A DNA stretch of 30,664 bases from the NCBI GenBank assembly GCA_041169125.1, contig JBEEJP010000003.1:1-30664 (forward strand). Direction: 5' to 3'. The notes below the pieces were generated by a model. It saw nothing but the letters and a program-made list of their open reading frames with translations, did not search any database and was not told the DNA's origin. Made by a program: the position numbers and the translations under genes. Positions within the stretch are counted from its first letter, which is position 1. Each line of letters starts with the position of its first letter. Positions 16,836 through 30,664 of the stretch are shown piece after piece. This DNA comes from Pseudomonadota bacterium. GTDB lineage: Bacteria > Pseudomonadota > Gammaproteobacteria > Burkholderiales > Burkholderiaceae_C.

Positions 16836-18421
16836 CGCTGCAAAAACAAGCGGTACGCAGGGTTGTGCGTTTCTTCCACATACGGATAGCCCAAACCATC
16901 CAAGAACGCGGTAAACGCTTTGTTGTCGACTTTGGGCACTTGCAAGCCCATCAAGATGCGGCCATAGTCTGCGCCTTGGTTGCGGTAGTGGAACAGGCTG
17001 ATGTTCCAGCCGGGGCGCATGGCCAGCAAAAACTTCATCAACGCGCCTGGGCGCTCGGGGAACTCAAAACGCAAGATGCGTTCTTCGTGCGCGAGTGACG
17101 AGTGCCCACCCACCATGTGGCGGATGTGTTCTTTGGCCAACTCGTCGTGGGTGAGGTCAATCGCTTCAAAGCCACTCTTGGTGAAATGGCCCGCAATCTT
17201 GCTGCTTTCGCCTTTGACGCCTGTGGTCAAGCCTACAAACACATGTGCCTTGGCTTGGTCGCTCATGCGGTAGTTGAACTCGGTCACGTTGCGGGGCGAT
17301 TTGCTGCCGCCAAAACTGGGCAGCTTGCCAATCAGCTCGCAAAAACGGCGCAGGCTACCGGGTTGCTCGGGGATGGTCACGGCAAACAAGGCTTCACGCT
17401 CTTCGCCCACTTCGGCGCGCTCGGCCACAAAGCGCAAGCGGTCGAAGTTCATGTTGGCGCCACACAAAATGGCGGCGTAGGTTTCGCCTTTGGTTTTGTG
17501 CTCGGCCACGTATTGCTTGATCGCGGCCACGGCCAATGCACCTGCGGGCTCGACGATGCTGCGGGTGTCTACAAACACGTCTTTGATGGCGGCGCACACG
17601 GCATCGGTGTCCACCGTGATGTAGCTGTCGACCAAGTTCTTTGACACGCGGAAGGTTTCTTCGCCCACCAGCTTCACGGCCGTGCCGTCAGAGAACAAAC
17701 CCACGTCGTTGAGCGTGACGCGCTTGCCTTTTTGCACCGACTGCATCATGGCCGAGGAGTCGTCCATCTGCACGCCAATCACTTTGATTTCGGGTCGCAC
17801 CGCCTTGATGTAGTTGGCCACGCCGCTGATGAGACCACCACCGCCAATGGCCACAAACACGGCATCGAGCTGGTGCAAGTTGAGACCCTGCAGTTGACGC
17901 AACATCTCCATCGCGATGGTGCCTTGGCCCGCAATCACATCGGGGTCGTCAAACGGATGCACAAAGGTCATGCCGTTTTTCTTTTCCAGCGTGAGTGCGT
18001 GGGTATAGGCGTCAGAGTAGCTGTCGCCCGCCAACACCACGTCGCCACCTAATGCCTTGACCGCTTCAATCTTCACGCTGGGCGTGGTGGTGGGCATGAC
18101 GATGATGGCTTTGGTGCCCAAACGTTTGGCACCGAGGGCCACGCCTTGCGCATGGTTGCCCGCCGAGGCGCAAATCACGCCCTTCTTGAGCTGTGCAGGC
18201 GTGAGGTGCGCCATTTTGTTGTAAGCGCCGCGCAGCTTGAAGCTGAAGACAGGCTGCTGGTCTTCGCGTTTCAAAAGCACAGTGTTGTGAATGCGACGGC
18301 TGAGGCTTTTCGCGACCTCCAACGCAGATTCGGTGGCCACGTCGTAGACGCGAGCCGTCAAGATTTTTTTCAGGTAATCGGCGGGCTGCAGGGCGCGCGC
18401 TTTTTGGGGGCGGGTAGACAT
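16832..18421 (-). CDS. ilvA: biosynthetic threonine ammonia-lyase (threonine dehydratase)
   Basis: It has the PLP lysine context FSFKLRGAYN, the glycine loop GGGGL, and two C-terminal ACT-like regulatory repeats. I chose the ATG at 18421 (MSTRPQKARALQPADYLKKIL..) rather than the 43-codon upstream extension in the track. Confidence 0.9.
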   Translation of the reverse strand: MSTRPQKARALQPADYLKKILTARVYDVATESALEVAKSLSRRIHNTVLLKREDQQPVFSFKLRGAYNKMAHLTPAQLKKGVICASAGNHAQGVALGAKRLGTKAIIVMPTTTPSVKIEAVKALGGDVVLAGDSYSDAYTHALTLEKKNGMTFVHPFDDPDVIAGQGTIAMEMLRQLQGLNLHQLDAVFVAIGGGGLISGVANYIKAVRPEIKVIGVQMDDSSAMMQSVQKGKRVTLNDVGLFSDGTAVKLVGEETFRVSKNLVDSYITVDTDAVCAAIKDVFVDTRSIVEPAGALAVAAIKQYVAEHKTKGETYAAILCGANMNFDRLRFVAERAEVGEEREALFAVTIPEQPGSLRRFCELIGKLPSFGGSKSPRNVTEFNYRMSDQAKAHVFVGLTTGVKGESSKIAGHFTKSGFEAIDLTHDELAKEHIRHMVGGHSSLAHEERILRFEFPERPGALMKFLLAMRPGWNISLFHYRNQGADYGRILMGLQVPKVDNKAFTAFLDGLGYPYVEETHNPAYRLFLQR

Positions 18422-18450
18422 GGGGTGATTGTCTCTTAAGACAAAAGGGC

Positions 18451-18482
18451 AAAAAAAAGCCCCGAGTTTTGCAACTCGGGGC
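18451..18482 (-). promoter_or_regulatory. terminator-like hairpin in the ilvA 5' leader (possible attenuator)
   Basis: On the minus strand the sequence reads GCCCCGAGTT-gcaa-AACTCGGGGC followed by TTTTTTTT. That is a 10-bp stem plus a U-run, ending about 30 nt upstream of the ilvA ATG. No minus-strand gene lies upstream for it to terminate. Confidence 0.4.
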
Positions 18483-18589
18483 ATGAATCCACTTTTGAGG
18501 GTGGAGGAGACAAGCCCAAATTGTATGCAAATTTTGTTGCGGTGCAACAATTCGCAGACAATCGTGGCAAATATTTTTGGAGAACCTTC

Positions 18590-19039
18590 ATGGAATGCAC
18601 CGTTAGCTGGACAGGTAACTCAGGCACGCGTTCAGGCATGGGCTTTATTGCAGAAACCGGCAGTGGTCACGTGGTGGCTATGGACGGAGCCCCCGATGCA
18701 GTGAAGCCCGAAAACGGGGGGCAAAACTTGGCGCCCCGCCCCATGGAAATGTTGTTGGCGGGGACGGGTGGTTGCACGGCGTATGACGTGGTGCTGATCT
18801 TGAAGCGTGGCCGCCACAACGTGCAGGGCTGCAGCGTGAAGATCGTGAGTGAGCGTGCCACCGAAGACCCCAAGGTGTTCACCAAAATCAACATGCACTT
18901 CACCGTCACAGGCAAAGGTGTGCCTGCCAGTGCGGTAGAGCGTGCCATTGCCATGAGCCACGACAAATACTGCTCGGCCAGCATCATGCTGGGCAAAACG
19001 GCTCAGATCACGACTAGCTTTGAACTGGTCGACGCCTAA
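18590..19039 (+). CDS. OsmC/Ohr family peroxiredoxin-like protein
   Basis: ATG at 18590 has GGAGA 6 nt upstream. 149 aa, with the two conserved Cys contexts GGCTAYDV and DKYCSAS typical of the OsmC family. Confidence 0.85.
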   Translation: MECTVSWTGNSGTRSGMGFIAETGSGHVVAMDGAPDAVKPENGGQNLAPRPMEMLLAGTGGCTAYDVVLILKRGRHNVQGCSVKIVSERATEDPKVFTKINMHFTVTGKGVPASAVERAIAMSHDKYCSASIMLGKTAQITTSFELVDA

Positions 19040-19048
19040 AGCGGCGGC

Positions 19049-19678
19049 TTAGATGCGGTGTGCCACGGTGGTCATCACCTTGGCGGCCACTTGCATCATG
19101 GCTTTGAAAGGCGCAGGCAGTTCCGCGGCCCCTGCGAGTTGCGCATCTTTGGCGTGCTGCGCCTCATCGGTTTTCATTTGCGCCACGATGGCTCTGCTGG
19201 GACCATCGTTCGCGGGCAAACGCCCGAGATGACTGTCCAAGTGCGCCTCGACCTGTCGTTCGGTTTCCACCACAAACCCGAGGCTCATGCGGTCTCCACC
19301 TAGCTTGGCAGCGCCGTAACCAATGGCAAATGCACCGGCATACCAAAGCGGGTTGAGCAGGCTGGTGCGACCACCCAACTCACGCAAACGTTGCTCGCAC
19401 CAAGCCAAGTGATCGGTTTCTTCATTGCATGCTGTGGTCAGGTGTTGGCGCAAGGCGTGGTCGCGCGTGGCGAGAGCTTGTGCGGTGTAAAGCGCTTGTG
19501 CACAAACCTCGCCCACGTGGTTCACACGCATCAAGGCAGCAGCCTCGGTTTTTTCTGCCTCGGTCAGCGGGGCAGATGCGGGTATTTCGGCGACCCATGT
19601 GGGCGTTGGGCGATTGGCGTGGTGGCGGGCGAACACGGTGCGCAAAGCACTGTCGGCGGCTGTCAATAATTGATCCAT
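19049..19678 (-). CDS. coq7: 2-nonaprenyl-3-methyl-6-methoxy-1,4-benzoquinol hydroxylase (di-iron Coq7)
   Basis: It has the Coq7 di-iron motifs [32 protein letters not shown] and DEAQHA. 209 aa. Confidence 0.9.
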
Positions 19679-19930
19679 AAGGCAAGTTTAAGGGCCAAGC
19701 TAGGCCCCTTTTTGTGGGGTGCTAAAAGCTTGTCAAAACCCACAATTTCCAAGGATTTACGCGGGTTTTGCCTAGGGTGTGTTGCATGCCTGCAACGGAA
19801 ATGACGTGTTTTTGACACCAGCCATGGTTTTATCTGGCTGAGTCTGGTTCAATACATCCAACTTCCCGAAAACGGAGGTTGGCCTCTACGAAAAGTAGGG
19901 GCCCCTGTTCAAACCTTGGAGAACCTTGAA

Positions 19931-21043
19931 ATGAAAAAAACCCTCGTTGCATTGGCCGCATTGGCCGCGACTTCTGCTTTCGCACAATCAACAGTCACTT
20001 TGTCTGGCTCGATCAACTACGGTATGCACCGCGGCACTGACGGTGCAACTTCTGTTGGCGGCTTGAAAGGTGACCGCAACCATTTGACATTTGCTGCCGT
20101 TGAAGACATGGGCAACGGCACCAAAGCTGCCGCCACTTTGCAAGCTCGTTATGACTCAGCAGCTTCAGGCGCTGGTTATGTGAACTCTACAACTGGCGTG
20201 ACAAACGACAGCTTGTTTGAGCAAACCAAAGTTTCTCTCAGCAACACTACATACGGTGAAGTCGCTGTGGGCCGTTTTACCAACGCGATTGGTGTTGCAC
20301 CAGTGCACGCTTTGGAAGATTCACGCGCCACAACAGCTAGCCACCAAGCTGCCAACGGCCGTTTGTCTGGCCAATTCCAGTACATGAGCCCTGCATTCGC
20401 TGGTGTTCAGGTTTGGGCTTTGACAGCTAAAGCAACTTCTAACTGCTACATGAGTGCTGGTTCTGGTGCTGGTTATGTCAAGACATATAACTATTGCCAA
20501 AACGATACCGCAGCGAACAGCACTTTGGGTAACAAAGATCTGACAGCAACTGGTTTGAACTACAACAATGGTCCTATCACTGCTCAGTACTACCAGTTGT
20601 CAGACCTCACTGGCGCTAAATCTACCAAGATTGCAGGTGTCTACGATGCGAAGGTTGCTAAGTTCTATGTGAACCAGTTCAACCAAAAAGACGACATCTC
20701 CTTCCGCGCAACCAACGGTGTGATGGGTGCAACTGCTGCTTTCACTACTACTAACGGTATGAAGGCTCACAAAGCAACTGAAATGGCTGTTGCAGTTCCT
20801 TACGGCAAGTTCACTGGTATCTTGGGCAAGTTGTCATTCGACTCTGACTTGACAGCTACTGCAGGTACTGCACCACGCAAAACTGGCTGGGCTGTGTTGT
20901 ATGACATGAGCAAGCGTACGCAATTGCAGTACTACGGTTCTGTCGTCAAGAACGGTACAGCACAAGCTGGTGCCTCTGGTTTGACAAACGGTGCTTTGGC
21001 TACTGGTGCATCTAACTTTGTTGGTATCGAGCACAAGTTCTAA
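19931..21043 (+). CDS. general (OmpC-like, Gram-negative porin family) outer-membrane porin, expressed copy
   Basis: ATG at 19931 has GGAGA at 19918-19922. The signal peptide is MKKTLVALAALAATSAFA-QS, the sequence shows an alternating beta-strand pattern, and the C-terminus is ..FVGIEHKF with a terminal Phe. The track's TTG at 19916 is rejected in favour of this ATG. Confidence 0.9.
   Translation: MKKTLVALAALAATSAFAQSTVTLSGSINYGMHRGTDGATSVGGLKGDRNHLTFAAVEDMGNGTKAAATLQARYDSAASGAGYVNSTTGVTNDSLFEQTKVSLSNTTYGEVAVGRFTNAIGVAPVHALEDSRATTASHQAANGRLSGQFQYMSPAFAGVQVWALTAKATSNCYMSAGSGAGYVKTYNYCQNDTAANSTLGNKDLTATGLNYNNGPITAQYYQLSDLTGAKSTKIAGVYDAKVAKFYVNQFNQKDDISFRATNGVMGATAAFTTTNGMKAHKATEMAVAVPYGKFTGILGKLSFDSDLTATAGTAPRKTGWAVLYDMSKRTQLQYYGSVVKNGTAQAGASGLTNGALATGASNFVGIEHKF
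19939..19959 (+). repeat. left copy of 21-bp direct repeat AACCCTCGTTGCATTGGCCGC (candidate attL core)
   Basis: It is a perfect match to 28079-28099. It lies in codons 3-10 of the porin signal peptide. Identity with the right copy breaks immediately on the 5' side (aaaaa versus tgtat). Confidence 0.65.
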
Positions 21044-21087
21044 TCCCCCCGCTGGCTTAGCCAGTTAAGGATTTAAAAGACTTAAAG

Positions 21088-21115
21088 CCCGCTACGGCAA
21101 CGTGGCGGGTTTTTT
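21088..21115 (+). terminator. rho-independent terminator of porin copy 1
   Basis: CCCGCTAC-ggcaac-GTGGCGGG forms an 8-bp stem with one G-U pair, followed by TTTTTT. Confidence 0.8.
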
Positions 21116-21154
21116 CTTTGTCTGTTCTGATCGGAACAATGGACGATTACACAC

Positions 21155-21173
21155 TGTCGTGGGAAACACGACA
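21155..21173. repeat. palindrome TGTCGTG-ggaaa-CACGACA (copy A)
   Basis: It has 7-bp perfect arms identical to those of the palindrome at 26591-26609. It lies about 20 nt beyond the stop of the minus-strand gene 21197-21640, at the left edge of the AT-rich cargo. Confidence 0.6.
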
Positions 21174-21196
21174 CAGCAGCATCAGTATTTCAGCAA

Positions 21197-21640
21197 CTAA
21201 GCAGGCTGCGGTTTATTTACTTTCAATAAGTTCTGTTGAGCTTTCGCAACTGACTGTTGGGCTCGTAGTTGTTTAGCTTGTTGATTGAGTTGCTTTGCAC
21301 GGTCTGACAGCGCCTTCACTTGTGCCTGCTGTGGGTTTAAGGGCTTCGCGGTCTCTGAGACTGGCGAGAACGACATACAAGCGCTAGTTCCATCGCGGGA
21401 TAGTGCCGGTTCTGGATTGCTACGGCAACGCTCTTGCGCACTTCGCACAGCGGACTCACGCACGGTTTCGGACACGCTGACTACATTACCTTGACCGTAT
21501 ATGCGCAAGAGCAATGCCCGAGCCTGTGCCAAGCTGTCTGCAGCTATGCTGGTTGTCGCAGTGAGTGCGAGGTCAGACAAATGAACTCTGACTACGGCGC
21601 GGTATGTGTGCAAGGGCTGTATGACTTCTGTGATTTTCAT
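21197..21640 (-). CDS. hypothetical protein (147 aa): small N-terminal domain, linker, Gln/Ala/Lys-rich C-terminal helix
   Basis: It is a long open frame in AT-rich DNA, where stops are frequent. The C-terminus LNPQQAQVKALSDRAKQLNQQAKQLRAQQSVAKAQQNLLK looks like a coiled coil. There is no clear SD before the ATG at 21640, and no family was recognised. Confidence 0.55.
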   Translation of the reverse strand: MKITEVIQPLHTYRAVVRVHLSDLALTATTSIAADSLAQARALLLRIYGQGNVVSVSETVRESAVRSAQERCRSNPEPALSRDGTSACMSFSPVSETAKPLNPQQAQVKALSDRAKQLNQQAKQLRAQQSVAKAQQNLLKVNKPQPA

Positions 21641-21730
21641 AGAATTATTTAGTGCGCCTTAGAACTGCACACTCAAACGGCGCCCTTCGCAGCATTTGGT
21701 CTGCGTGCGGGCACCGAATCTCTAACGAGA

Positions 21731-22174
21731 TTACTTCTTGAACTTTGCACGGACTAACTCACTTGCAGCTTGGATTTGCGAATCAAGCTCCCCTGCATTG
21801 ATCGCTTGCTCTAACTTCTTAAAGACAACAATCATTTCGTCAGCATCACTGACCTCAATGCTGTTCTTGTCACCCTTTGCTGTGAGTGGCACAACCTTAG
21901 AGCCGTAGCGCAGTTGAACGCAGACTTTGCCACCGTTAAAGAACCACCACTCTTTGACTTTCGTTGCGACTTCAATGACTTGACTCACCCCCGATTCATC
22001 ACGCACACGACGCAAGCGTCTTGCTGTGAATGTGTCACCAACTTTCAATGCTTCTGCCAATGCGATTTGTTCTCGGACTTTCTGGCACAGCTTGTAGCGA
22101 CGATTGATAACAGGGTCAGTGCCAGCACTTCGCTTCGCACTGACCAACTTCAAAGAACCCAAGATTGAAGACAT
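21731..22174 (-). CDS. hypothetical protein (147 aa)
   Basis: ATG at 22174 has a perfect AAGGAG 6 nt upstream, so the track start at 22204 is rejected. It resembles, from memory only, a roughly 150-aa uncharacterised family common on proteobacterial genomic islands (motifs SAKRS, NRRYKL, VKEWWF..GK.C..LRYG). No function is known. Confidence 0.65.
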   Translation of the reverse strand: MSSILGSLKLVSAKRSAGTDPVINRRYKLCQKVREQIALAEALKVGDTFTARRLRRVRDESGVSQVIEVATKVKEWWFFNGGKVCVQLRYGSKVVPLTAKGDKNSIEVSDADEMIVVFKKLEQAINAGELDSQIQAASELVRAKFKK

Positions 22175-23321
22175 AGAAAACTCCTTTTGTGAAAGTGAGT
22201 TCATTCTTGTCCCACCCTCTGGGTTGTCCTATATCCATCGAGGCAGACCCTTTTGGTTTTTTTCTGGTTTCCTTTGGTTCCGACTAAATAAATGTATCAA
22301 CTGAATGAATAGCAAGCATCGCTTAAAAGTATGCCCATATCCCGTCCTCAGTCGTGTTGTGACGGTCGGAAGTGTGAAGTTCAGCACACCTTTGTAGGAC
22401 TACCCTCGCAAGGATGCCTTAAATGAGCGGTGAATCATCGCAACATTTCCTACATCGGAAAGGTAATGGCTTGGAAACAAGTAAAAAGACTAGTAGATAC
22501 CAAAAAGTTTGTCATAGCATCATTGAACACCTGAGAGATGCTTTAAAAATCGTTGTTGGTCACGGTAAGGAACAGAGCCGAGAGCAAACTTCTAACTAGC
22601 ATTCAAATACGGTCATCATTGGATAGAAATGGACTTCTATCGTTATCAGACGCAAGTGATGCGTGCATTGATGATCCCAACTGGTTGTCACGTGGCGACG
22701 GACAAGGCGAGAGCTAACTACCCCTTTGCTGTCGAAGGGTGGTTATGGCTCTTAACAGTGAGAGGGGAAATCAATAAGTTGTTTATCTTGCATCAGGCAT
22801 CTTTCACATCACTTATTAGAAATAAAGCGCCGAGCAATCAACCGAGCGCAGCGAAGGGTGTTGCGAATGCGCTTAGCGAACTTCAGTTCGCTTCAATAGC
22901 TGAACACACAAACCCTTGATAGAAATGAAATCCCACGCCCATCAATAACCCACTCACCAGAACCACTTAAAAACAACACCTTTCAAGCAGCAACACAAAA
23001 GCCATACTTTTATCTATCCACTGGACTCACATCGTCAGCACTCTCAGCGCAAGAGTTCAAACGATGGCAGACAGAGACTGGCGAAAAGCGTCTGTCCGCG
23101 ATTGATTGGTGTAGGGACAAGCAAACACACGTCCCGCCATTCACATCGTCTTAAATCGCTGGACTGACAAGAAATCAAAGCAAATAGTTCTTAGCTTTGA
23201 TTACGCGGTAACTTGTTGATTCCATTGAGAACGCCACATCCTCCCAAAAAGGATTGGCTTTTTAAATAGCAGGATACAAACTAAATACATCTCATCTATT
23301 TGATTTGTAAGGAACTACTCA

Positions 23322-23921
23322 ATGGCACAAGCAAAAGTTTTGACTGAAAAAGAAATCCGTCGTGTTCTCAAGCATATTGATTCAAAGCGTCACGCAAGTC
23401 GCAATCGCTGTATGTTCTTGCTGACGCACGGGACTGGTATGCGAGTTGGTGAAGTCGCTGCGCTTCGCATTCAAGATGTGCTCTCAGCTGATGGGTCAAT
23501 CAAATCGGAGGTCTATTTGTCTGCTGAGCAAACAAAGGGCAGCAAGGGGCGCACGATTTATCTGTCCGAAAAAATGCGACAAGAAGTGTCGTCATATCTG
23601 CAATCCCGCTTCCGCTTGAAAGACTTGATCGCAGTCACATACACAGACACAAGCCGCGCTCTATTCGCAACGCAGAAAGATTGCCATCGCGGCTTTAGCG
23701 CATCAACTGCTTGCCAGATGTTTCATTATTGGTATCGTGAAGCAAAGGTTGACGGTGCATCAAGTCACAGCGGTCGTCGCGGATTCATTACATCACTTGC
23801 GAACAAGGGCATTTCTGTTCGTGTTCTACAAGAACTCGCGGGACATTCATCTCTGGCAATCACGCAACGCTACATTGATGTGAATCCAGCAATGCTGCAT
23901 CAAGCAGTGGGCTTGCTTTAA
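23322..23921 (+). CDS. short tyrosine recombinase, catalytic domain only (FimB/FimE size class)
   Basis: 199 aa, with AAGGA 8 nt before the ATG. Candidate catalytic residues are R in GMRVGEV, H-x-x-R in SHSGRRGF, H in GHSS and Y in QRYIDV. It has no N-terminal core-binding or arm-binding domain. Its N-terminus, LTEKEIRRVL....ASRNRCMFLL, parallels FimB LTHSEIESLL....AARNYCLTLL (recalled). Confidence 0.85.
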   Translation: MAQAKVLTEKEIRRVLKHIDSKRHASRNRCMFLLTHGTGMRVGEVAALRIQDVLSADGSIKSEVYLSAEQTKGSKGRTIYLSEKMRQEVSSYLQSRFRLKDLIAVTYTDTSRALFATQKDCHRGFSASTACQMFHYWYREAKVDGASSHSGRRGFITSLANKGISVRVLQELAGHSSLAITQRYIDVNPAMLHQAVGLL

Positions 23922-24718
23922 GCCCTTCTCCAACTTGCACCTCGTTGCGTACGCTCAACCCAATCGTGTGTCTCAGTTGATGGAAAAACACCTTCACTGG
24001 CATTGGCGATCAAGTCACGGGCTTTCTCAATGTATTCCGTGACCCTTTGCGACATAAAGAAATGTTTATCCTTGATCACCACATCTGAATCGTTAGGTTT
24101 AACTGTGTTTGTAGGGTCAGCATTCATTGCTTCACCAACCTCATACAGCTTCACATTGGGGTTTTTCTTGCGAAGCTCTTGCTGAACTTCGTAGGCTTTC
24201 AGATAGATGTTGATTGCTGGAGATGACAACTTACTTGATCGCATCTTTGCCTTAGCAGTGCTTTGCTTCCACCTATCAAACTGGCGATAGTGTGGATGGT
24301 GCTTTTTCAATAACTGATTGAACTGGGCTTTCAGGGTAGCGGGTGACACATTCAATGGAACATCAAATCTGATTGTGTTCTCAGGAACCTCTTCTGTTTC
24401 AAGTGGCACAGAGATTCGACGGAAGTTCTTGCCCTCGCAAAACAAGTTAAAGCCAACATCAACCCACCACTCGTCAAATGTGGTGCCTCGCAAGTCTCCA
24501 AAAAACTCATAGGTAGTTCGCAGTTTTTCGCTCTGCCAAACTCCAGTGTCAATCGCATTGGCAAGATATGGGGAGTATTTGAGACAGCGATACCAAGCCT
24601 CATACAGCGTGCCCCTTGCTATCTCTAAAGAATCTGGCACTGCGTGACGCTCAAAGCGCACATCTTCGGGGAAGCCTTTGAAGTAGAACGCGGGCTTAGG
24701 TAGTTGGTCAGATTTCAT
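23918..24718 (-). CDS. hypothetical protein (266 aa)
   Basis: I chose the ATG at 24718 (MKSDQLPKPAFYFKGF..). The 113-codon N-terminal extension in the track overlaps the divergent gene at 24813 and looks non-protein-like. Its stop overlaps the recombinase stop (TTAA at 23918-23921). No family recognised with confidence. Confidence 0.6.
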   Translation of the reverse strand: MKSDQLPKPAFYFKGFPEDVRFERHAVPDSLEIARGTLYEAWYRCLKYSPYLANAIDTGVWQSEKLRTTYEFFGDLRGTTFDEWWVDVGFNLFCEGKNFRRISVPLETEEVPENTIRFDVPLNVSPATLKAQFNQLLKKHHPHYRQFDRWKQSTAKAKMRSSKLSSPAINIYLKAYEVQQELRKKNPNVKLYEVGEAMNADPTNTVKPNDSDVVIKDKHFFMSQRVTEYIEKARDLIANASEGVFPSTETHDWVERTQRGASWRRA

Positions 24719-24812
24719 TTTGCCTAAGTTAAAAGTATTCAAAAAATCGACACTACTTTCACCACAGCAACAAACCTTCATCAACTTCGCTGTGTAAAGA
24801 AAGGATGGACAT

Positions 24813-25814
24813 ATGTCTATTGTGATCGAGCAAGTCGCTGATGCTGCGACAACCCGTGCTAACACTGCTGTGAAGGCTCCCACAAAAAAACAAGCTACTG
24901 TCAAGTTTCCTCGCAAAGCAAAAGTCAAAGTGACTGCCGCTGCAGCAAAAACGCTTGTTCCTACTACTGCGAAATCTGCAGCACCACTGACTGATCTCAA
25001 GTCGATGGAGCAGGCACGCATCAAGTGGGAAACGACAGAACTGGCAGCAGCTAACAATCGTCTCTATTTCATTCTCACGCAAGCCTACAGCTACTACTTG
25101 ACGATGAAAAATGACGTTGCCACTGCTGTTCGCAAAGCGCACTTGGCATCGCTTGATGATTTCATCAAGGAACACGGCTACACGTTTTCTGCCACCTCAC
25201 ACGATATGACTCGTGTGATCAAGTGTGTGTTTGGCGTTGATCGTCGCCGTGTCAGCGCATACAGCATCGCTTTGCGTGAAGCTCTGCGTCAAAACGTCTC
25301 AGCCGCTGACCTGACACAGTTCTTGGAACTGAACGGTGGAGTTGAGCAGATTCGCTTGGGTGGCACTAAACCTCTCACAGCAACTCAGCGCGCGGACAAA
25401 GTCAAAGCTGAAGTCGCAAACACAGAGCTTGGTCATTTCAAGTTCGATCCTGCTGTGTTCGCCGGTGATCCTGACTGGAATGACAAACAAGTCGTGATCG
25501 TTGCAACTTACTTGCCTACTGGTGAGTTCCAAGCTAACGCTGTCGTGCAGCACACAGGTGCAGTCAATGCTGCGTTGTCTGCTTTCTACGCACAACAAAA
25601 CGCAAAGGTTCGCGCAGAGGCTAAGGCTGATCGTGATGCTGAGAAAGAAAACGAGAAATATCTCAAGCAATCAGCAGCAAAGGTTCGTCGTCAGATTCAG
25701 AAAAATAAACCTGCTGCAGAAAAGCGTAAAGCAAAGGCCAAAAAAGAGGAAGCGGAGAAAGCTCGTCGCACCGCTATGGACTCTCGACTCACTGAGTTTT
25801 TCGTCGCAGCCTAA
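24813..25814 (+). CDS. hypothetical protein (333 aa) with Lys/Ala-rich basic N- and C-terminal tails
   Basis: ATG has AAAGGA upstream. The tails are KAPTKKQATVKFPRKAKVKVTAAAAK and KVRRQIQKNKPAAEKRKAKAKKEEAEKARR, flanking a globular core. It appears co-transcribed with the AAA+ gene downstream. No family recognised. Confidence 0.65.
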   Translation: MSIVIEQVADAATTRANTAVKAPTKKQATVKFPRKAKVKVTAAAAKTLVPTTAKSAAPLTDLKSMEQARIKWETTELAAANNRLYFILTQAYSYYLTMKNDVATAVRKAHLASLDDFIKEHGYTFSATSHDMTRVIKCVFGVDRRRVSAYSIALREALRQNVSAADLTQFLELNGGVEQIRLGGTKPLTATQRADKVKAEVANTELGHFKFDPAVFAGDPDWNDKQVVIVATYLPTGEFQANAVVQHTGAVNAALSAFYAQQNAKVRAEAKADRDAEKENEKYLKQSAAKVRRQIQKNKPAAEKRKAKAKKEEAEKARRTAMDSRLTEFFVAA

Positions 25815-25869
25815 GCAACTGTGGGGAGCTTTGTCTCCCCACCTTTAACTCAATATTTTGGAGGTTTAT

Positions 25870-26583
25870 ATGAACGGATTTTCACCTGATCGTCTTGACG
25901 ATTTTTTGTTTACTAACGCACAAGATAAAGCATTGCTTGAAATGATCTTGTCTCATCAACTGCCTTTTCCATTTGCAGGCAAGAGCGGCATCTTGATTCA
26001 CGGCACTTGGGGAACTGGTAAATCAACTTTGGCAACATTGCTGCCCGAGTTGATTGATACATCGTATGCAGGAACTTACAACTTGTCTAAGAACATTGGA
26101 CAAATGACACCAGATCCACACGCAGCCCCACAAAAGAAAATGTTTCGTTGTGGCAGCGTGAACATCGTCCAAGTCACGCAGCAAATCAACAACTACTCAT
26201 CTCGCTCACAGCTTCTGCATCACTCGCAGCAAGATTATTTTGTGTTTGATGAGGTGGATCGTTTGACAACCGGAGCGCAGCAGAGCCTTCGTTCAACAAT
26301 GGACTTGAAGCGCTGTATGTTTTTTCTCAGCACAAACTATTTGAACAAGATTGACAGTGGCATTGTCAATCGCTGTCACTTGATTGAGATGAATCAGATC
26401 GCAAATAACAACGCATATTTGCCACTGGGTCGCAACATCTTGAAGAATATGGGACTGAAGGCGAATGCTATCCCAGCGAAGACTTTGACCTCATATGCGC
26501 AAAAGGCTAAAGGTTCTGTTCGCACCTTTATGACAGATGTGATTATTCAGGGCGTTTTGGTGCGCAACTCAAAACCTGTATGA
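25870..26583 (+). CDS. clamp-loader-like (RFC / T4 gp44 / DnaX-type) AAA+ ATPase, truncated architecture
   Basis: ATG at 25870 has GGAGG at 25860-25864. Motifs are Walker A GTWGTGKST, Walker B YFVFDEVD followed by the RFC-box-like RLTTGAQQSLRSTMD, sensor-1 FFLSTN, and NRC in place of the clamp-loader SRC arginine-finger motif. At 237 aa it has no room for the C-terminal collar domain. Confidence 0.8.
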   Translation: MNGFSPDRLDDFLFTNAQDKALLEMILSHQLPFPFAGKSGILIHGTWGTGKSTLATLLPELIDTSYAGTYNLSKNIGQMTPDPHAAPQKKMFRCGSVNIVQVTQQINNYSSRSQLLHHSQQDYFVFDEVDRLTTGAQQSLRSTMDLKRCMFFLSTNYLNKIDSGIVNRCHLIEMNQIANNNAYLPLGRNILKNMGLKANAIPAKTLTSYAQKAKGSVRTFMTDVIIQGVLVRNSKPV

Positions 26584-26589
26584 CAGTAA

Positions 26590-26610
26590 GTGTCGTGTTA
26601 AACACGACAC
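26590..26610. repeat. palindrome GTGTCGTG-ttaaa-CACGACAC (copy B)
   Basis: It has 8-bp perfect arms, and the inner 7 bp of each arm are identical to copy A at 21155-21173. It starts 7 nt after the AAA+ stop codon. Confidence 0.6.
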
Positions 26611-26624
26611 CCTTTCACTTCTTA

Positions 26625-26649
26625 ACCCGCATTTAGTGCGGGTTTTTTA
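26625..26649 (+). terminator. rho-independent terminator after the AAA+ operon
   Basis: ACCCGCA-tttag-TGCGGGT is followed by a T-run. Confidence 0.75.
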
Positions 26650-26680
26650 TTGATGTGTGGGTTTAAGGTCGGGGATATTT

Positions 26681-27961
26681 CTACCGTTTCTTACTATGAA
26701 GCAGCGCCACATTCATCTCAGCAGCTAATGTGCTGGCATAGTGTTTTTCGATCATATCTACGCTGGTTCTGGCATTGCGTGCCAGCGTGAGCAAGTCAAT
26801 ACTTCCGCCATACAAAAGACGAAGTGTGATTGATGTGTGTCGCAAGCTATAGAGGCTGCGGTCAATGTTGTGTGGCCCTCGCTTGATACCTAAGTCTTTG
26901 AGAATCCAGTTAAACAACCAGCCAATGATGTTCAATATCAATCTGCGATTGGGTTCTTCTGGAAAGAAAACATAGTCATCTGGATTGCCGAAGCCACTTG
27001 CCAGTTGATGTGCAGTAATGTGCCTGTAGATAGAAACGGCATTTGGCAAGCTAACGATAGGCGATCTATGGCGCTTAACTTCAGGCAAGTTGATACGCAG
27101 ATAACTACGATCCCCCTTAACAACTTCAATGTGTTTGTTTTGTAGCTGTCGTATGTCACCTGGCCGGACAAATGTGTAAACCATAAAGCGGATAAGCCAG
27201 TTCATCTCCACTGGCATTGTTTGATACTGCTCTTTTATCCACAATCTCTTGCCAATCCCCCAAGCGGTAAATCGTTCTCTCGTAAGAGCGCGGGATTTGC
27301 GAAGTATCTGTGCATATTCAGTGATTGTGAAAGCTCCCCGAGAGTTGTTCTGATTTTTAATGCGTGGAGTTATGGGTATTTGTTGAAGGTGTTTTTCTGT
27401 GTAGAAATATCTAAGCAACACATTAACCAAAGATAAGTAGCCTTGAATAGTTGTGGTGCCTAAGTTTTTTTCAGTTAAAAAATCAATGAACTTCTGTAAT
27501 GTTTGCGTGTCAATATTTTTAACGGTTTGAGCGATGAAAAACTCATACACAAACCCTTCTAGTCGGCCTCGCATAATCAAAGCTGAAGCTCGCTTGATTT
27601 CATCTCGTTTAACGCGGTCTTCATTGGCGGCAATGACGAAGTCAATCGCTTTAGCAACGATCTCTTGATCGGTTTGCGGTTTCAGCAATGCGAGGACTGC
27701 TTTGGGATGTCGCAACTTGATTGATTGAAAGAAATCTGCCGCGAGTTTTTTTGCTTCGCTCAAGTCAGTTGTTTTGAGGCTCTGCGATAGGTACTTACCA
27801 TTGAGATAGAGGCGAACTTGCCAAAACTTGCTGCCAAATATGCGATAAATCTTGAGAGTTTTTGGCAAGCCTTCAATGCTGTTAAGGCTTGATTTGATGA
27901 CGAGGCTATTAGAGGTATGAAGTAAATAGTGGTTGTCGTTAGCTGCTTCTATTTTGCTCAT
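26681..27961 (-). CDS. int: tyrosine integrase (P4-like, full length)
   Basis: 426 aa. The N-terminal segment FWQVRLYLNGKYLSQSLKTTDLSEAKKLA is typical of P4-type integrases. Candidate catalytic residues are R in FVRPGDIRQL, H-x-x-R context YSLRHTSIT and Y in IEKHYAS. It lies directly next to the right 21-bp repeat. Confidence 0.9.
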   Translation of the reverse strand: MSKIEAANDNHYLLHTSNSLVIKSSLNSIEGLPKTLKIYRIFGSKFWQVRLYLNGKYLSQSLKTTDLSEAKKLAADFFQSIKLRHPKAVLALLKPQTDQEIVAKAIDFVIAANEDRVKRDEIKRASALIMRGRLEGFVYEFFIAQTVKNIDTQTLQKFIDFLTEKNLGTTTIQGYLSLVNVLLRYFYTEKHLQQIPITPRIKNQNNSRGAFTITEYAQILRKSRALTRERFTAWGIGKRLWIKEQYQTMPVEMNWLIRFMVYTFVRPGDIRQLQNKHIEVVKGDRSYLRINLPEVKRHRSPIVSLPNAVSIYRHITAHQLASGFGNPDDYVFFPEEPNRRLILNIIGWLFNWILKDLGIKRGPHNIDRSLYSLRHTSITLRLLYGGSIDLLTLARNARTSVDMIEKHYASTLAAEMNVALLHSKKR

Positions 27962-27973
27962 TTCGTCAAAAAG

Positions 27974-28007
27974 TATTCTTGATTCATAAAATCAGAAATC
28001 AAGAATA
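27974..28007. promoter_or_regulatory. perfect 11-bp inverted repeat TATTCTTGATT-N12-AATCAAGAATA upstream of int
   Basis: The arms are at 27974-27984 and 27997-28007, starting 13 nt upstream of the int ATG in very AT-rich DNA. It is a candidate operator or regulator-binding site. Confidence 0.4.
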
Positions 28008-28078
28008 TTTTAGTGATTATAGCAAATAGGTATTATTTAATAACAACATTTTGAAAAATAATTTGGAACTAATGTAAT

Positions 28079-28099
28079 AACCCTCGTTGCATTGGCCGC
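28079..28099 (+). repeat. right copy of 21-bp direct repeat AACCCTCGTTGCATTGGCCGC (candidate attR core)
   Basis: It is a perfect match to 19939-19959. The AT-rich island DNA ends exactly at its 5' edge. Confidence 0.65.
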
Positions 28100-29231
28100 T
28101 TTGGCTTCAGTGTCTGCTTTCGCACAATCTACTGTGACCATCAGCGGTATCGTTAACTACGGTATGCACAATGACGTGACCAAGACAACTTCTTACGGCG
28201 GCCTCAAAGGCGACCGTAACAACCTCACTTTTGGTGTGGTGGAAGACTTGGGCGCTGGCTCAAACGTGACTACAACTTTGCAGTTCCGTTTCAACAGCGG
28301 TACAGGCGCAGCTGGTTATTCCAACACTGGCGCTTCTTCTGAAGCAGGTGCAGGCGCAACTCAATTCGAACAAGCTGCGATTGGCTACAACAGCCCCATC
28401 GGCGCTGTTCGCGTGGGTCGTTTCACCAACGCTTTGGGCGTGTATGACTTCTCAACATTCGAAGATTCCAAGTACGGTACCAACGCATCTCGCGCTGCCT
28501 ACGGCCGTTTGAGCAACACATTGCAAGTTTCTTCTCCTGTGATCTCTGGCTTCCAAGCTCACTTGATCGGTGCACAAGGTTCTTCTAACAAGTGGGGCAA
28601 CCCAGGCGGCGTTTCTGGCGCTGGTTTTGTGACTGGTGTTGATTACTCTGCTCAAGTTTTTGCCAATGCAAACGGCAGCAAAGGCACTCAAGACTTCTCG
28701 TCTATCGTGTTGAACTACGCAAACGGTCCTTTGGCTTTGCAATACGCTGACATCAACGGTCTCGCTTACGAAAAAGCAACTCGCGTCGCAGCATCTTGGA
28801 ACGCAGGTTTCGCCAAGTTCTACGTTGGTCAATACAACCAAAAGCACGATATTGGTACTAGCGCTGCAACAACAGCTGCGTACAACGCAGTGACAACAGT
28901 TGCAAACACAGGTTTGGCTGCTCACAAGTCAACTGAATACGGCGTGGCTGCACCTTACGGCAAATTCACTTTGCGTGCTGGTGTCCGCACTAACGACAAA
29001 GACTTGACAATCGGTACAACAGACGGTTCTACAAAAGCCAAGACAACTGCTATTGGCTTCGAATACGCTTTGTCTAAGCGTACTGAGTTGCAATACCAAC
29101 GCATGAACACTAAAAATGGTGTTGTGAAGTCCGCTACTGCGGCTAATAACAACGGTTGGGATGCAATCGGTGGCGGCTTCGGCGATTCCACAGGTTCTGC
29201 CTACTTCGTTGGTATCCAACACAAGTTCTAA
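28080..29231 (+). pseudogene. 5'-decapitated paralogous porin (intact body from codon 4 to stop; no ATG, SD or native promoter)
   Basis: The frame is open from 28062 to TAA at 29229-29231, with an in-frame TAA at 28059-28061. It aligns with copy 1 from codon 4 (TLVALAAL...) to ..FVGIQHKF. The only in-frame start-like codon is TTG at 28092, which would give a signal peptide with no charged N-region. It is called a pseudogene for lack of a better type and may be a silent, reactivatable cassette. Confidence 0.65.
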
Positions 29232-29275
29232 TCCCCCCGCTGGCTTAGCCAGTTAAGGATTTAAGTAAGACTAAA

Positions 29276-29306
29276 CCCCACCGTGGTAACACGGTGGGTT
29301 TTTTTT
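29276..29306 (+). terminator. rho-independent terminator of porin copy 2
   Basis: CCCACCGTG-gtaa-CACGGTGGG forms a perfect 9-bp stem, followed by TTTTTTTT. Confidence 0.85.
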
Positions 29307-29354
29307 ATTGGTGTTTTCTAGCGTCGATAATCATGTGTTATCTCAAACACGTGC

Positions 29355-30062
29355 ATGCAGCCGATTTCAAACATGTCATCTCTCTCGCCCAGCCCTTCAG
29401 TAATGGCGCTTGAAGGGGTACGCTTGCAGCGTGGTAACACGTGTGTGTTTGATGGTTTCACGCTTTCATTGCAAGAGTCACGCATTGGCTTGATTGGTGA
29501 CAACGGCGCTGGCAAGAGCAGCTTGTTTCGATTGCTCAGCGGCTTAGACCGCCCACAAGCAGGTCGCGTGCTTGTGCCCGAGGGGGTGCAGGCTGTGGGC
29601 ATGATGTTTCAAAACCCCGACGACCAAATTATTTTTCCGACGGTGGAGGAAGAGTTGGCGTTGAGTTTGCAGCACGCCTCGCTCACGCGTGCCCAAGCGC
29701 AACAACAAGTGCGTGAGGTCTTGCAAGCGCGTGGTTTGGCGGCGTGGTCTTCGCGGGCCATTGCCAGTTTGAGCCAAGGCCAGCGCCAACATGTGTGCTG
29801 GTTAGCACTGGCTTTGGCGCCACACCGTGTGTTGCTGCTGGATGAGCCATTTGCAAGCCTCGACCTTCCTGGGCAAGCCGCGCTCAAGCATGAGATTGAG
29901 CAAGCCCCTCAACAGGTGTTGGTGTCGACCCATGTGTTGGCGCATGTGCGCCATTTCGAACGGGTGATTTGGCTTGACCAAGGCCGTGTGCGCGCCGATG
30001 GTGCCGGTGCCGAGGTGTGTGCCGCGTACGAGGCCGATGTGGCTTCGCGAGCTGTGGTGTAA
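29355..30062 (+). CDS. ECF-type (CbiO/BioM-like) transporter ATP-binding protein
   Basis: Motifs are Walker A GDNGAGKSS, Q-loop, signature LSQGQRQ and Walker B LLLDEPFASLD. It lies directly upstream of a T-component gene. Three in-frame ATGs (29355, 29373, 29403) are possible starts. Confidence 0.8.
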   Translation: MQPISNMSSLSPSPSVMALEGVRLQRGNTCVFDGFTLSLQESRIGLIGDNGAGKSSLFRLLSGLDRPQAGRVLVPEGVQAVGMMFQNPDDQIIFPTVEEELALSLQHASLTRAQAQQQVREVLQARGLAAWSSRAIASLSQGQRQHVCWLALALAPHRVLLLDEPFASLDLPGQAALKHEIEQAPQQVLVSTHVLAHVRHFERVIWLDQGRVRADGAGAEVCAAYEADVASRAVV

Positions 30063-30070
30063 GGCCAATC

Positions 30071-30664
30071 ATGGGTAGTCTTTACAGCGACATTCCAACA
30101 TGGCTACACCGGGTGTCAGCAGGCGTCAAGCTGCTGGTGCTCGCGCTGTTGGGCATGGGCTTGTTTGCACTGCAGCAATGGCAGGGCTTGTTGCTTGTGA
30201 CGGTGGTGTGCGTGTTGGTCTTTGTGTCACTCGGCGCCGCCAGCTACCGTGCGAAACCTTTGGTGCTGGGGGTGTTGGTGGCCAGTGTGTTGGTGGCCGC
30301 ATTTCATGTGTGGATGGCGCAACCTGAGATAGCGGCCATCACGGTCATGCGCATGCTCAGTGCCACCTTGATGGGCGTCGCCTTGACGCTCACCACGCGC
30401 TACAGCGATTTGTTGCAGGTGTTTGAGTGGGTGCTTTCGCCTTTGCAAAAATCAGGAATTCGCACCGATGTGTTGGCGTTGCAACTGGCGTTGATGCTGC
30501 GTTTCACAGAGCATTTCTTCGTGGTGTGGCGCCGCTTAGACGATGCTTATCGCTTGCGAACGGGGCAGTCTGGCGGTTTTAAAATACTCGCGCCGCTGAC
30601 CATTCAGATGTTGCTCACCACGCGTCGCGTGGCTGATGCGCTCACGCTTCGCTTGCGTCGCTAA
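30071..30664 (+). CDS. ECF transporter transmembrane T component (CbiQ/BioN family)
   Basis: ATG at 30071 lies 8 nt after the ATPase stop. It is a 197-aa polytopic membrane protein with the C-terminal A-x-x-x-R-x-G type coupling motif (DDAYRLRTG). The stop is at the window end. Confidence 0.7.
   Translation: MGSLYSDIPTWLHRVSAGVKLLVLALLGMGLFALQQWQGLLLVTVVCVLVFVSLGAASYRAKPLVLGVLVASVLVAAFHVWMAQPEIAAITVMRMLSATLMGVALTLTTRYSDLLQVFEWVLSPLQKSGIRTDVLALQLALMLRFTEHFFVVWRRLDDAYRLRTGQSGGFKILAPLTIQMLLTTRRVADALTLRLRR

Follow-up and report, generated by a model that had tools for sequence, protein, structure and literature searches.

The window analysed here, a 30,664-nucleotide contig (JBEEJP010000003.1), carries at positions 19960-28078 a predicted site-specific integrative element of about 8.1 kb, which would swap the porin expressed by its host for one of its own and silence the resident copy. 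From the comparisons described below, we put the probability of this reading at roughly 80%. The flanking genes include ilvA, OsmC and COQ7, with ABC and CbiQ genes following the second porin, and the first three place the window by gene content in freshwater Comamonadaceae. Look-ups of the exact sequences of porin 1 and COQ7 gave no recorded match. In the proposed mechanism, the element integrase would recombine at a short core, AAACCCTCGTTGC, which codes for residues 3-7 (K-T-L-V-A) of the general-porin signal peptide of Comamonadaceae. The attachment site (att) of the circular form, attP, would consist of an AT-rich arm, the core and a start-less cassette made up of the remainder of the signal peptide, the barrel, a hairpin in the 3' untranslated region (UTR) and a terminator; its predicted sequence is arm-AACCCTCGTTGCATTGGCCGC-ATTGGCCGCGAC. 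The host site attB would read promoter-ATG-core-resident porin, predicted as ...ATGAAAAAAACCCTCGTTGCATTGGCCGCTTTGGCTTCAGTG.... Integration would place the element cassette behind the promoter, 5' UTR, Shine-Dalgarno and ATG-AAA-AA of the host, and porin 1 would be made. The resident porin 2 would be left without a start codon behind the arm, with its T-run hairpin and stop codon, and would be silent. Excision would reverse the swap and restore porin 2. Under pressure from phages or bacteriocins, the host would likely benefit from a change in a receptor at its surface or in a channel that sets permeability.

The boundaries of the element are given by a 21-bp perfect direct repeat, AACCCTCGTTGCATTGGCCGC, of which the window contains exactly two copies, both on the + strand (attL and attR in Table 1). 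When the window was shuffled, none of 100 shuffles gave two matches to the 21-mer. The left copy begins at the third base of codon 3 and ends at the second base of codon 10 in porin 1, a complete Porin_4 gene (Pfam E 7e-14) that encodes the signal peptide MKKTLVALAALAATSAFA/Q and has GGAG 9 nt before its ATG. The porin 2 body is headed by the right copy; it too is Porin_4 (Pfam E 4e-19) and is only 43% identical to porin 1 at the protein level. AT-rich DNA reaches directly to the right repeat and holds an in-frame TAA; ahead of TTG 28092 there is no in-frame ATG, GTG or TTG and no Shine-Dalgarno. Between the repeats lie the porin 1 body with its terminator, about 5.6 kb of cargo and the gene of a 426-aa recombinase, the 5' end of which is 117 bp from the right repeat. 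An earlier sequence-only reading of this DNA had described the exact repeat, the complete porin on the left, the start-less porin on the right and the integrase next to it, and each of these was borne out. It had also seen no remnant of a second promoter at the left edge of the AT-rich block (21117-21200), in agreement with our search of 21044-28078, which gave no copy of the promoter region (19679-19940) or of ATGAAAAAAACC and only chance 9-10-mers. The GC content is 0.60 and 0.58 in the two flanks, 0.50 in both porins and 0.456 in the cargo, integrase gene and arm. Element-borne or resident alike, the porins thus sit near 0.50 in a chromosome near 0.60.

The account of the repeats in the sequence-only reading was incomplete, since a longer perfect repeat of 45 bp had been overlooked at 21032-21076 and 29220-29264. 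It comprises the last four codons, the TAA and part of the 3' UTR of the two porins, and the terminators beyond it are homologous too. We considered the 45-bp repeat as an att site and rejected it, as it belongs to a lineage-wide hairpin-terminator that folds as a 3'-UTR structure. The module, TAA-tcccc..CTGGC-tta-GCCAG..ttaaGGAtt followed by a terminator, was present in 66 of 83 porin cassettes in L081-L175 (L-numbers, L001 and L081-L183, label the related contigs and loci that were compared with the window). Its stems show compensatory variants, such as CTAGC/GCTAG and CAGGC/GCCTG, and the fold z values of the two copies in the window are -5.6 and -4.6. A role in mRNA stability, in regulation or in recombination is possible.

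Relatives that lack the element reveal the unoccupied site. L157 is collinear with both flanks of the window and the 8.1 kb is absent: window 17754-20113 corresponds to L157 1-2377, window 28076-30636 corresponds to L157 2200-4752, and the breakpoint at window 28076 coincides with att. The order in L157 is promoter, ATG, core, porin-2-type gene, ABC and CbiQ. L095 (COQ7 89% identical) and L094 each have one full-length porin by COQ7, 84% and 82% identical to porin 2, respectively, directly behind the conserved 5' UTR and ATGAAAAAAA. Full-length relatives of the porin 2 type, beginning with MKK, therefore occupy the expression site of L095, L094 and L157, as expected from the sequence-only reading, which had envisaged a single porin of this type behind the promoter. 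The closest species-level genome, L001, a Comamonadaceae metagenome-assembled genome (MAG) with 86% identity in COQ7, likewise has a single porin following COQ7, and the upstream ...ENLE-MKKTLVA is the same. The region 19679-19930 is conserved ahead of ATGAAAAAAA in L001, L081, L083, L084, L094, L095, L157 and L183. Within it, the 5' UTR (19800-19930) is highly conserved in L081, L083, L094, L095 and L183, and ahead of the Shine-Dalgarno it is predicted to form two hairpins (GGAGGTTGGC.../GGGGCCCC...); it matches no Rfam family.

The layout porin (-), integrase (+), cargo, porin (-), COQ7 recurs in three contigs, L081, L083 and L084, with integrases 72-82% identical to that of the window. Here too the integrase lies at one end and direct repeats bound both ends. 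L083 and L084 encode an identical integrase. Their identity is about 88% in the host flank (SBP gene), about 55% in the bodies of the integrase-adjacent porins, and about 100% from the arm/core junction through the integrase and cargo to the 5' end of the distal porin. Because the block of identity takes in the whole distal porin, this promoter-side porin belongs to the mobile block, the limits of which are the two core sites, and the earlier proposal that the first porin body is part of the element holds. Across samples, one and the same integrase (P0006) neighbours at least three distinct resident porins. In total, the architecture occurs in at least five independent assemblies from different samples and in one isolate genome. 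The same modules are present in the cultured isolate Limnohabitans sp. TS-CS-82 (L180, GCA_002943475.1, PTQX01000001.1 359985-381208), so the arrangement is not only a product of metagenome assembly. The porin 1 cassette itself has chromosomal counterparts. In L183, the COQ7 expression site has a porin-1-type allele (87% aa identity) as its ordinary resident, and a porin-1-type silent copy stands beside a distant integrase in L182. The homology of both to the window ends at 21116, which is the end of the terminator, so the element cassette runs from core to terminator. Judging from these alignments, imprecise excision from a chromosomal porin locus is the probable origin of the cassette.

To what extent is the core shared by the recombinase family, which counts 3,353 database proteins at E<=1e-10? 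A metagenome scan with the integrase alignment yielded 80 further loci at 52-57% identity, which were classified by purpose-built porin and integrase hidden Markov models and counted if at least 700 nt were available upstream of the integrase gene. An opposite-strand porin abuts the 5' end of the integrase gene in 68 of 75 loci. In 64 of these 68, arm and porin join precisely between ...AA and CCCTCGTTGC (codons 3-7), and the other four are variants with one mismatch or one indel. None of 71 integrase-adjacent junctions has an in-frame start with a Shine-Dalgarno, and 60 have an in-frame stop within 20 codons; with porin 2 start-less in the window, this agrees with the earlier claim that the resident porin is decapitated. 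All the comparative checks suggested by the sequence-only reading gave results that favoured it. Every expressed copy carries ATGAAAAAA[A/T]CCCTCGTTGC. The porin bodies are only 25-45% identical in amino acids, yet the 10-nt core is kept. In other Comamonadaceae genera the codons of MKK[TS]L[IV]A vary freely at synonymous sites, and the exact ATGAAAAAAACCCTCGTTGC is confined, in this comparison, to three Limnohabitans-like MAGs. The invariance of the core despite divergent bodies and free codon choice elsewhere argues for a constraint at the DNA level, that is, a recombination site. The arms of L083, L084 and L091 (for instance L083 2294-2340, minus strand) contain a sequence, CCTTGGAGAACCTTtGAccAgAAAATAAAAACC, that repeats the native ribosome-binding and start region, CCTTGGAGAACCTTGAAATGAAAAAAACC, in degenerate form, with ATA in place of ATG. 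This hints that arms of the L083/L084/L091 type may descend from a former expression site.

The 426-aa integrase had been called P4-like in the sequence-only reading, an assignment that did not hold. No P4-type domain was found in Pfam or NCBIfam, the window has no tRNA gene, and the target is the 5' end of a porin. The protein matches PF13102 at 22.9 bits (cutoff 22.3), PF00589 at 17.2 bits, below the cutoff of 27.1, and the PHROG_1 'integrase' family at 1e-20; NCBIfam gave nothing meaningful, and a profile search of the PDB sequences gave no match. An AlphaFold2 (AF2) model was built from 76 homologues, with a predicted local distance difference test score (pLDDT) of 77.6 and 37 low-confidence residues at the C-terminus; an earlier model from 14 sequences (pLDDT 59) was discarded. 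The top Foldseek matches were full-length lambda Int structures, 1z1b and 1z1g (1z1b E 1.7e-7, 408 aligned columns), followed by Cre, Tn1549 Int and XerA/XerH. R266 (VRPGD), K296, R374-H375 (SLRHT), R398 and Y408 are invariant in the 76 sequences, with putative catalytic roles assigned by eye. With lambda Int as the best fold match, the model identifies the protein as a lambda-type tyrosine recombinase with an arm-binding domain rather than a P4-like one. No relative was found by tblastn in a phage collection of 50,697 records, and IMG/VR held only distant relatives (25-30%). Plasmids gave relatives of 25-29% identity over most of the protein and two short fragments of 40-53%. The recombinase family is undescribed.

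Several observations weigh against an element that captures the expression site. The expression of porin 1 and the silence of porin 2 are predictions from the sequence. The unoccupied site is known from relatives and not from the same strain, with about 82% identity in the flank and 74-84% in the porin. The cargo has no excisionase, replication or transfer gene recognised by Pfam, NCBIfam, PHROG or PADLOC. At L092, L122, L143 and L180, the element lies in an already silent porin copy and its own porin could not be expressed. In these four cases (L092 at 7785), a cargo-bearing element sits inside a silent porin beside a solitary integrase, giving two start-less porins in a row. It follows that capture of the expression site is not obligatory, that cassettes stack, and that the newcomer is not always expressed. 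The earlier claim that the element porin is expressed through host signals stands with a qualification: the cassette does depend on the host ATG-AAA-AA, but elements also occur in silent copies. Finally, most members of the family, in the clade at 52-57% identity, are solitary chromosomal genes with host genes on the 3' side and a silent porin on the 5' side, so the family comprises more than the integrases of mobile elements.

The last point leads to the alternative that survives best, in which the block is a resident part of a programmed chromosomal porin-switching locus, vertically inherited and rearranged by deletion or inversion between cores. Solitary recombinases were found among L101-L175 (for example L118, L152, L105, L146 and L169), and their 3' neighbours fall into SBP-permease-ABC (10 loci), MarR-GFO (7 loci), MBL/NUDIX-TctC-DapF-DUF484-XerC (7 loci), PilB/PilC (4 loci) and thiolase (2 loci). 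The subclades of the integrase tree follow these chromosomal positions, and this points to recombinases that have become resident (domesticated) at several loci of a genome. Silent porins are paired with a convergent, complete, promoter-bearing porin a few kb away in L095, L154, L157, L162 and L170, and the signal-peptide stretches of such pairs are identical over up to 50 nt. When L154 (1-19224) was compared with L157 (1-21287), the outer flanks were collinear and 88-90% identical, with OsmC, COQ7, promoter and ATG on one side and the arm, integrase gene and MarR on the other, and the 5.4 kb between the porins was inverted. The inverted segment contains nitroreductase, thiolase, AMP-ligase, BioY, CbiQ and ABC genes, and its breakpoints fall in the porins beside a solitary recombinase. 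The difference looks like a programmed or recombinase-mediated inversion that would swap the porin body at the promoter. These comparisons of inverted pairs are between populations, and the window itself has direct repeats. Arm and integrase loci that are 95-100% identical carry silent porins only 52-62% identical, which also fits a switching locus. For the window, however, recombination between direct repeats would delete the block and not switch it reversibly. The window integrase belongs to a clade that always comes with AT-rich cargo, the block of that clade is about 100% identical in hosts with 88%-identical flanks, and there are relatives that lack the block altogether. A vertically inherited locus is therefore an unlikely explanation of the window, and the integrative element remains the preferred one.

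It is improbable, too, that porin 2 is still expressed, from a promoter in the arm and a start at TTG 28092, with both porins being made. Its reading frame can begin at that TTG, and a weak promoter-like match (9/12 positions) lies at 27963-27992 on the + strand. Yet promoter-like matches in the region number 6, as compared with 9.9 in shuffled sequence, and a hairpin with a T run separates the match from the porin. The TTG is not preceded by a Shine-Dalgarno, the product would start with MAALASVSAFA and so lack the Lys n-region of a signal peptide, and a start with Shine-Dalgarno is missing from all 71 homologous junctions. The idea of two tandem resident paralogues, the second of which took up an island at its 5' end and then lost its promoter and start by deletion, draws on the 21 bp and 45 bp that the porins share at their 5' and 3' ends. 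We consider it very improbable. None of the relatives compared has two promoter-bearing porins in tandem at the locus, nor were complete tandem porins without cargo seen, the pattern which the sequence-only reading had taken to favour insertion into the second of two paralogues. No promoter remnant is present at 21117-21200 or elsewhere in the block, the island of L083 and L084 carries the promoter-side porin with it, and the shared 3' end is the hairpin of 66 of 83 cassettes. Least credible of all is an assembly chimera of the porin loci of two strains joined at the shared 21-mer, for although the window is a MAG contig and contigs of related elements often break inside porins (L086, L089), at least five independent assemblies and an isolate genome have the same architecture, and arm meets porin at the same core in 68 loci, almost always at the same nucleotide.

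The site-specific integrative element may be one part of something larger. The recombinase loci of the family share the features of vsa-, vpma- and shufflon-type systems, that is, start-less silent copies, a conserved 5' site and an adjacent recombinase gene. Silent copies may also act as donors. Comparison of L083 7480-8700 with L084 8112-9332 gave 39 differences, all 39 of which match the silent resident porin of L083 (1080-2320); one patch of them lies in the signal peptide and the other in an internal stretch of 160 bp. Gene conversion between the cassettes is the suggested cause, an assembly mosaic being the alternative. Direct repeats of 52-61 bp in L081, L083 and L084 were considered as a longer att and set aside, because the match of 39 out of 39 differences to the resident copy is better explained by gene conversion. 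Taken together, freshwater Limnohabitans-like Comamonadaceae might share a lineage-wide system of porin switching, of which the window would show one mobile module and in which one recombinase family loads, inverts and keeps cassettes; we hold this joint reading tentatively, at a little under even odds. Under it, a single expression site would receive start-less cassettes from small mobile elements, chromosomal stretches between convergent porins would be inverted so that a new body meets the promoter, and silent cassettes would also donate patches by gene conversion, all by way of a 10-13-bp site inside the signal-peptide codons. If true, free-living planktonic bacteria would use the expression-site logic of antigenic variation, presumably driven by phages or grazers.

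Porins are major receptors for phages and bacteriocins and set the permeability of the outer membrane. Porin hypervariability in planktonic bacteria is usually ascribed to homologous replacement of flexible islands. The element described here would provide a concrete site-specific route, in which a promoterless, start-less porin captures the host signals in one step and the old porin is kept silent. In e14 and phage 21, which integrate in icd, and in tRNA-targeting islands, the 3' end of the target is replaced by a near-identical copy. As in those cases, a tyrosine integrase would act within a gene, the element supplies the substitute part, and direct repeats mark both ends. Integration in icd or a tRNA gene keeps the same gene working, whereas here the crossover lies in codons 3-7 and nearly the whole open reading frame (ORF) is exchanged for an allele of 43% identity, and the element gene would need the host promoter, Shine-Dalgarno and ATG. 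Lc of phage PA-2 is a complete, prophage-borne porin gene that has expression signals of its own. There too a mobile element changes the major porin of the host; the present element differs in having no phage structural genes, an integrase without a relative in 50,697 phage records, and a start-less porin. A prophage or phage satellite with a conversion porin was rejected on these grounds, no structural or packaging genes and no relatives in the phage collection having been found.

The closest functional analogue of the solitary-recombinase loci is found in mycoplasmas. The vsa/HvsR system of M. pulmonis and the vpma/Xer1 system of M. agalactiae have one promoter-bearing site, promoterless silent copies, a 5' recombination site and an adjacent tyrosine recombinase (PMC2268961), and the solitary-integrase loci and the L154/L157 inversion resemble them. 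Those systems are chromosomal and inversion-based and vary lipoproteins of host-associated mycoplasmas. The present one, in contrast, concerns general porins of free-living freshwater Betaproteobacteria, its site lies in signal-peptide codons, and the window cassette is brought in by a mobile element that supplies the integrase as well. The closest outer-membrane example is the SusC/SusD shufflons (Tsr) of Bacteroides fragilis, in which recombination in or near the gene changes the expressed variant. Phylum and recombinase family are different there, as is the protein (TonB-dependent SusC as opposed to a 16-strand Porin_4). The targets named in a systematic survey of gene-altering inversions include SusC, HsdS, tail fibres and PilV but no porin (PMC9881135). 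Integrons also place promoterless cassettes behind a fixed promoter by a tyrosine recombinase, and their distal stacked cassettes are silent. Here, unlike in integrons, there is no attC-type folded site and no IntI, each unit brings an integrase and cargo, and the cassette is start-less and joins in frame within an ORF. An integron was rejected, since the NCBIfam integron-integrase models do not match the 426-aa protein. Full-text literature searches gave no description of porin-targeting integrases or of porin shufflons. The present system would combine site-specific integration with expression-site switching, nearly a whole ORF being replaced from the 5' side.

These findings tie a recombinase family tightly to porin 5' ends in freshwater metagenomes and in cultured Limnohabitans, and its presence in the latter makes the hypothesis directly testable in culture. 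They also provide a new recombinase/att pair with a target inside coding sequence. For annotation, 'truncated' porins beside 'hypothetical proteins' call for caution, as they are probably functional silent cassettes.

Table 1. Features of the porin locus and the predicted integrative element (window coordinates).
Feature	Position	Strand	Basis or remark
Host expression site: promoter region, structured conserved 5' UTR, Shine-Dalgarno GGAG 19909-19912	19679..19930	+	COQ7-adjacent porin locus
Host-derived ATG AAA AA (start and first Lys codons), predicted to be used by the element porin cassette	19931..19938	+	sequence
attL identity segment, 21 bp, contains family-wide core AACCCTCGTTGC	19939..19959	+	
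Porin 1, predicted expressed porin, 370 aa, Porin_4; element-borne from about codon 3 on	19931..21043	+	Pfam; L083/L084 equivalence
3' UTR hairpin and intrinsic terminator of porin 1 cassette (cassette end)	21044..21116	+	terminator 21084-21113; fold z -5.6
Cargo ORF, 147 aa	21197..21640	-	clusters with ORF of L083-type elements
Cargo ORF, DUF6641, 157 aa	21731..22204	-	PF20346 E 1.3e-10; phrog_31551
Cargo ORF, 96 aa, function unassigned	22629..22919	+	
Small second tyrosine recombinase, 199 aa, catalytic domain only, XerD/FimB-like	23322..23921	+	PF00589 E 4e-31
Cargo ORF, about 252 aa (up to 379 aa from TTG 25057)	23918..24676	-	no match in NCBIfam, PHROG or PADLOC
Cargo ORF, 333 aa, Lys/Ala-rich	24813..25814	+	no match in Pfam, NCBIfam, PHROG or PADLOC
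Clamp-loader-like AAA+ ATPase, 241 aa	25858..26583	+	PF00004; RFC small subunit 1.4e-12; phrog_168 1.8e-19
Element integrase, 426-aa tyrosine recombinase, lambda-Int-like architecture (model)	26681..27961	-	PHROG_1, PF13102, AF2/Foldseek
Element arm (P arm), AT-rich, hairpin and T run, in-frame TAA 28059-28061; abuts predicted silent porin	27962..28078	.	homologous to L081 arm
attR identity segment, 21 bp	28079..28099	+	
Beheaded body of resident porin 2 (383 codons), lacking start codon, Shine-Dalgarno and promoter	28080..29231	+	
3' UTR hairpin and terminator of resident porin, then host ABC/CbiQ genes	29232..29312	+	synteny with L157

The cargo consists of the clamp-loader-like AAA+ ATPase, the 199-aa recombinase, the DUF6641 protein and four ORFs without matches; the 147-aa ORF had none in Pfam, NCBIfam, PHROG or PADLOC. 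With the same four collections, no defence, phage-structural, replication-initiator or transfer genes were recognised in the cargo. The PHROG matches within the element are limited to integrases, the clamp-loader-like ATPase and one family of unknown function. The 199-aa recombinase also matches the NCBIfam models for XerD (4e-24) and a tyrosine-type DNA invertase (3e-11). A second recombinase, either a small tyrosine recombinase or a resolvase, recurs in related elements, and DUF6641 is also encoded in L081, L122, L143 and L180.

In the arm, an AT-rich hairpin at 27970-28012, with a 15-bp stem followed by a T run, lies between the start of the integrase gene and the silent porin. By its position it could be a terminator that shields the silent porin or an operator of the integrase gene. 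L081 has a hairpin at the same position of the arm with a different stem sequence. Rfam gave no match inside the element; its sole match in the window, RF02278 (Betaproteobacteria toxic small RNA; 56.7 bits, gathering score 50), is outside it at 18452-18512 (-), near the 5' end of ilvA. In L083, a MqsR/MqsA toxin-antitoxin pair (8985-9685) is located between the porin promoter region and COQ7.

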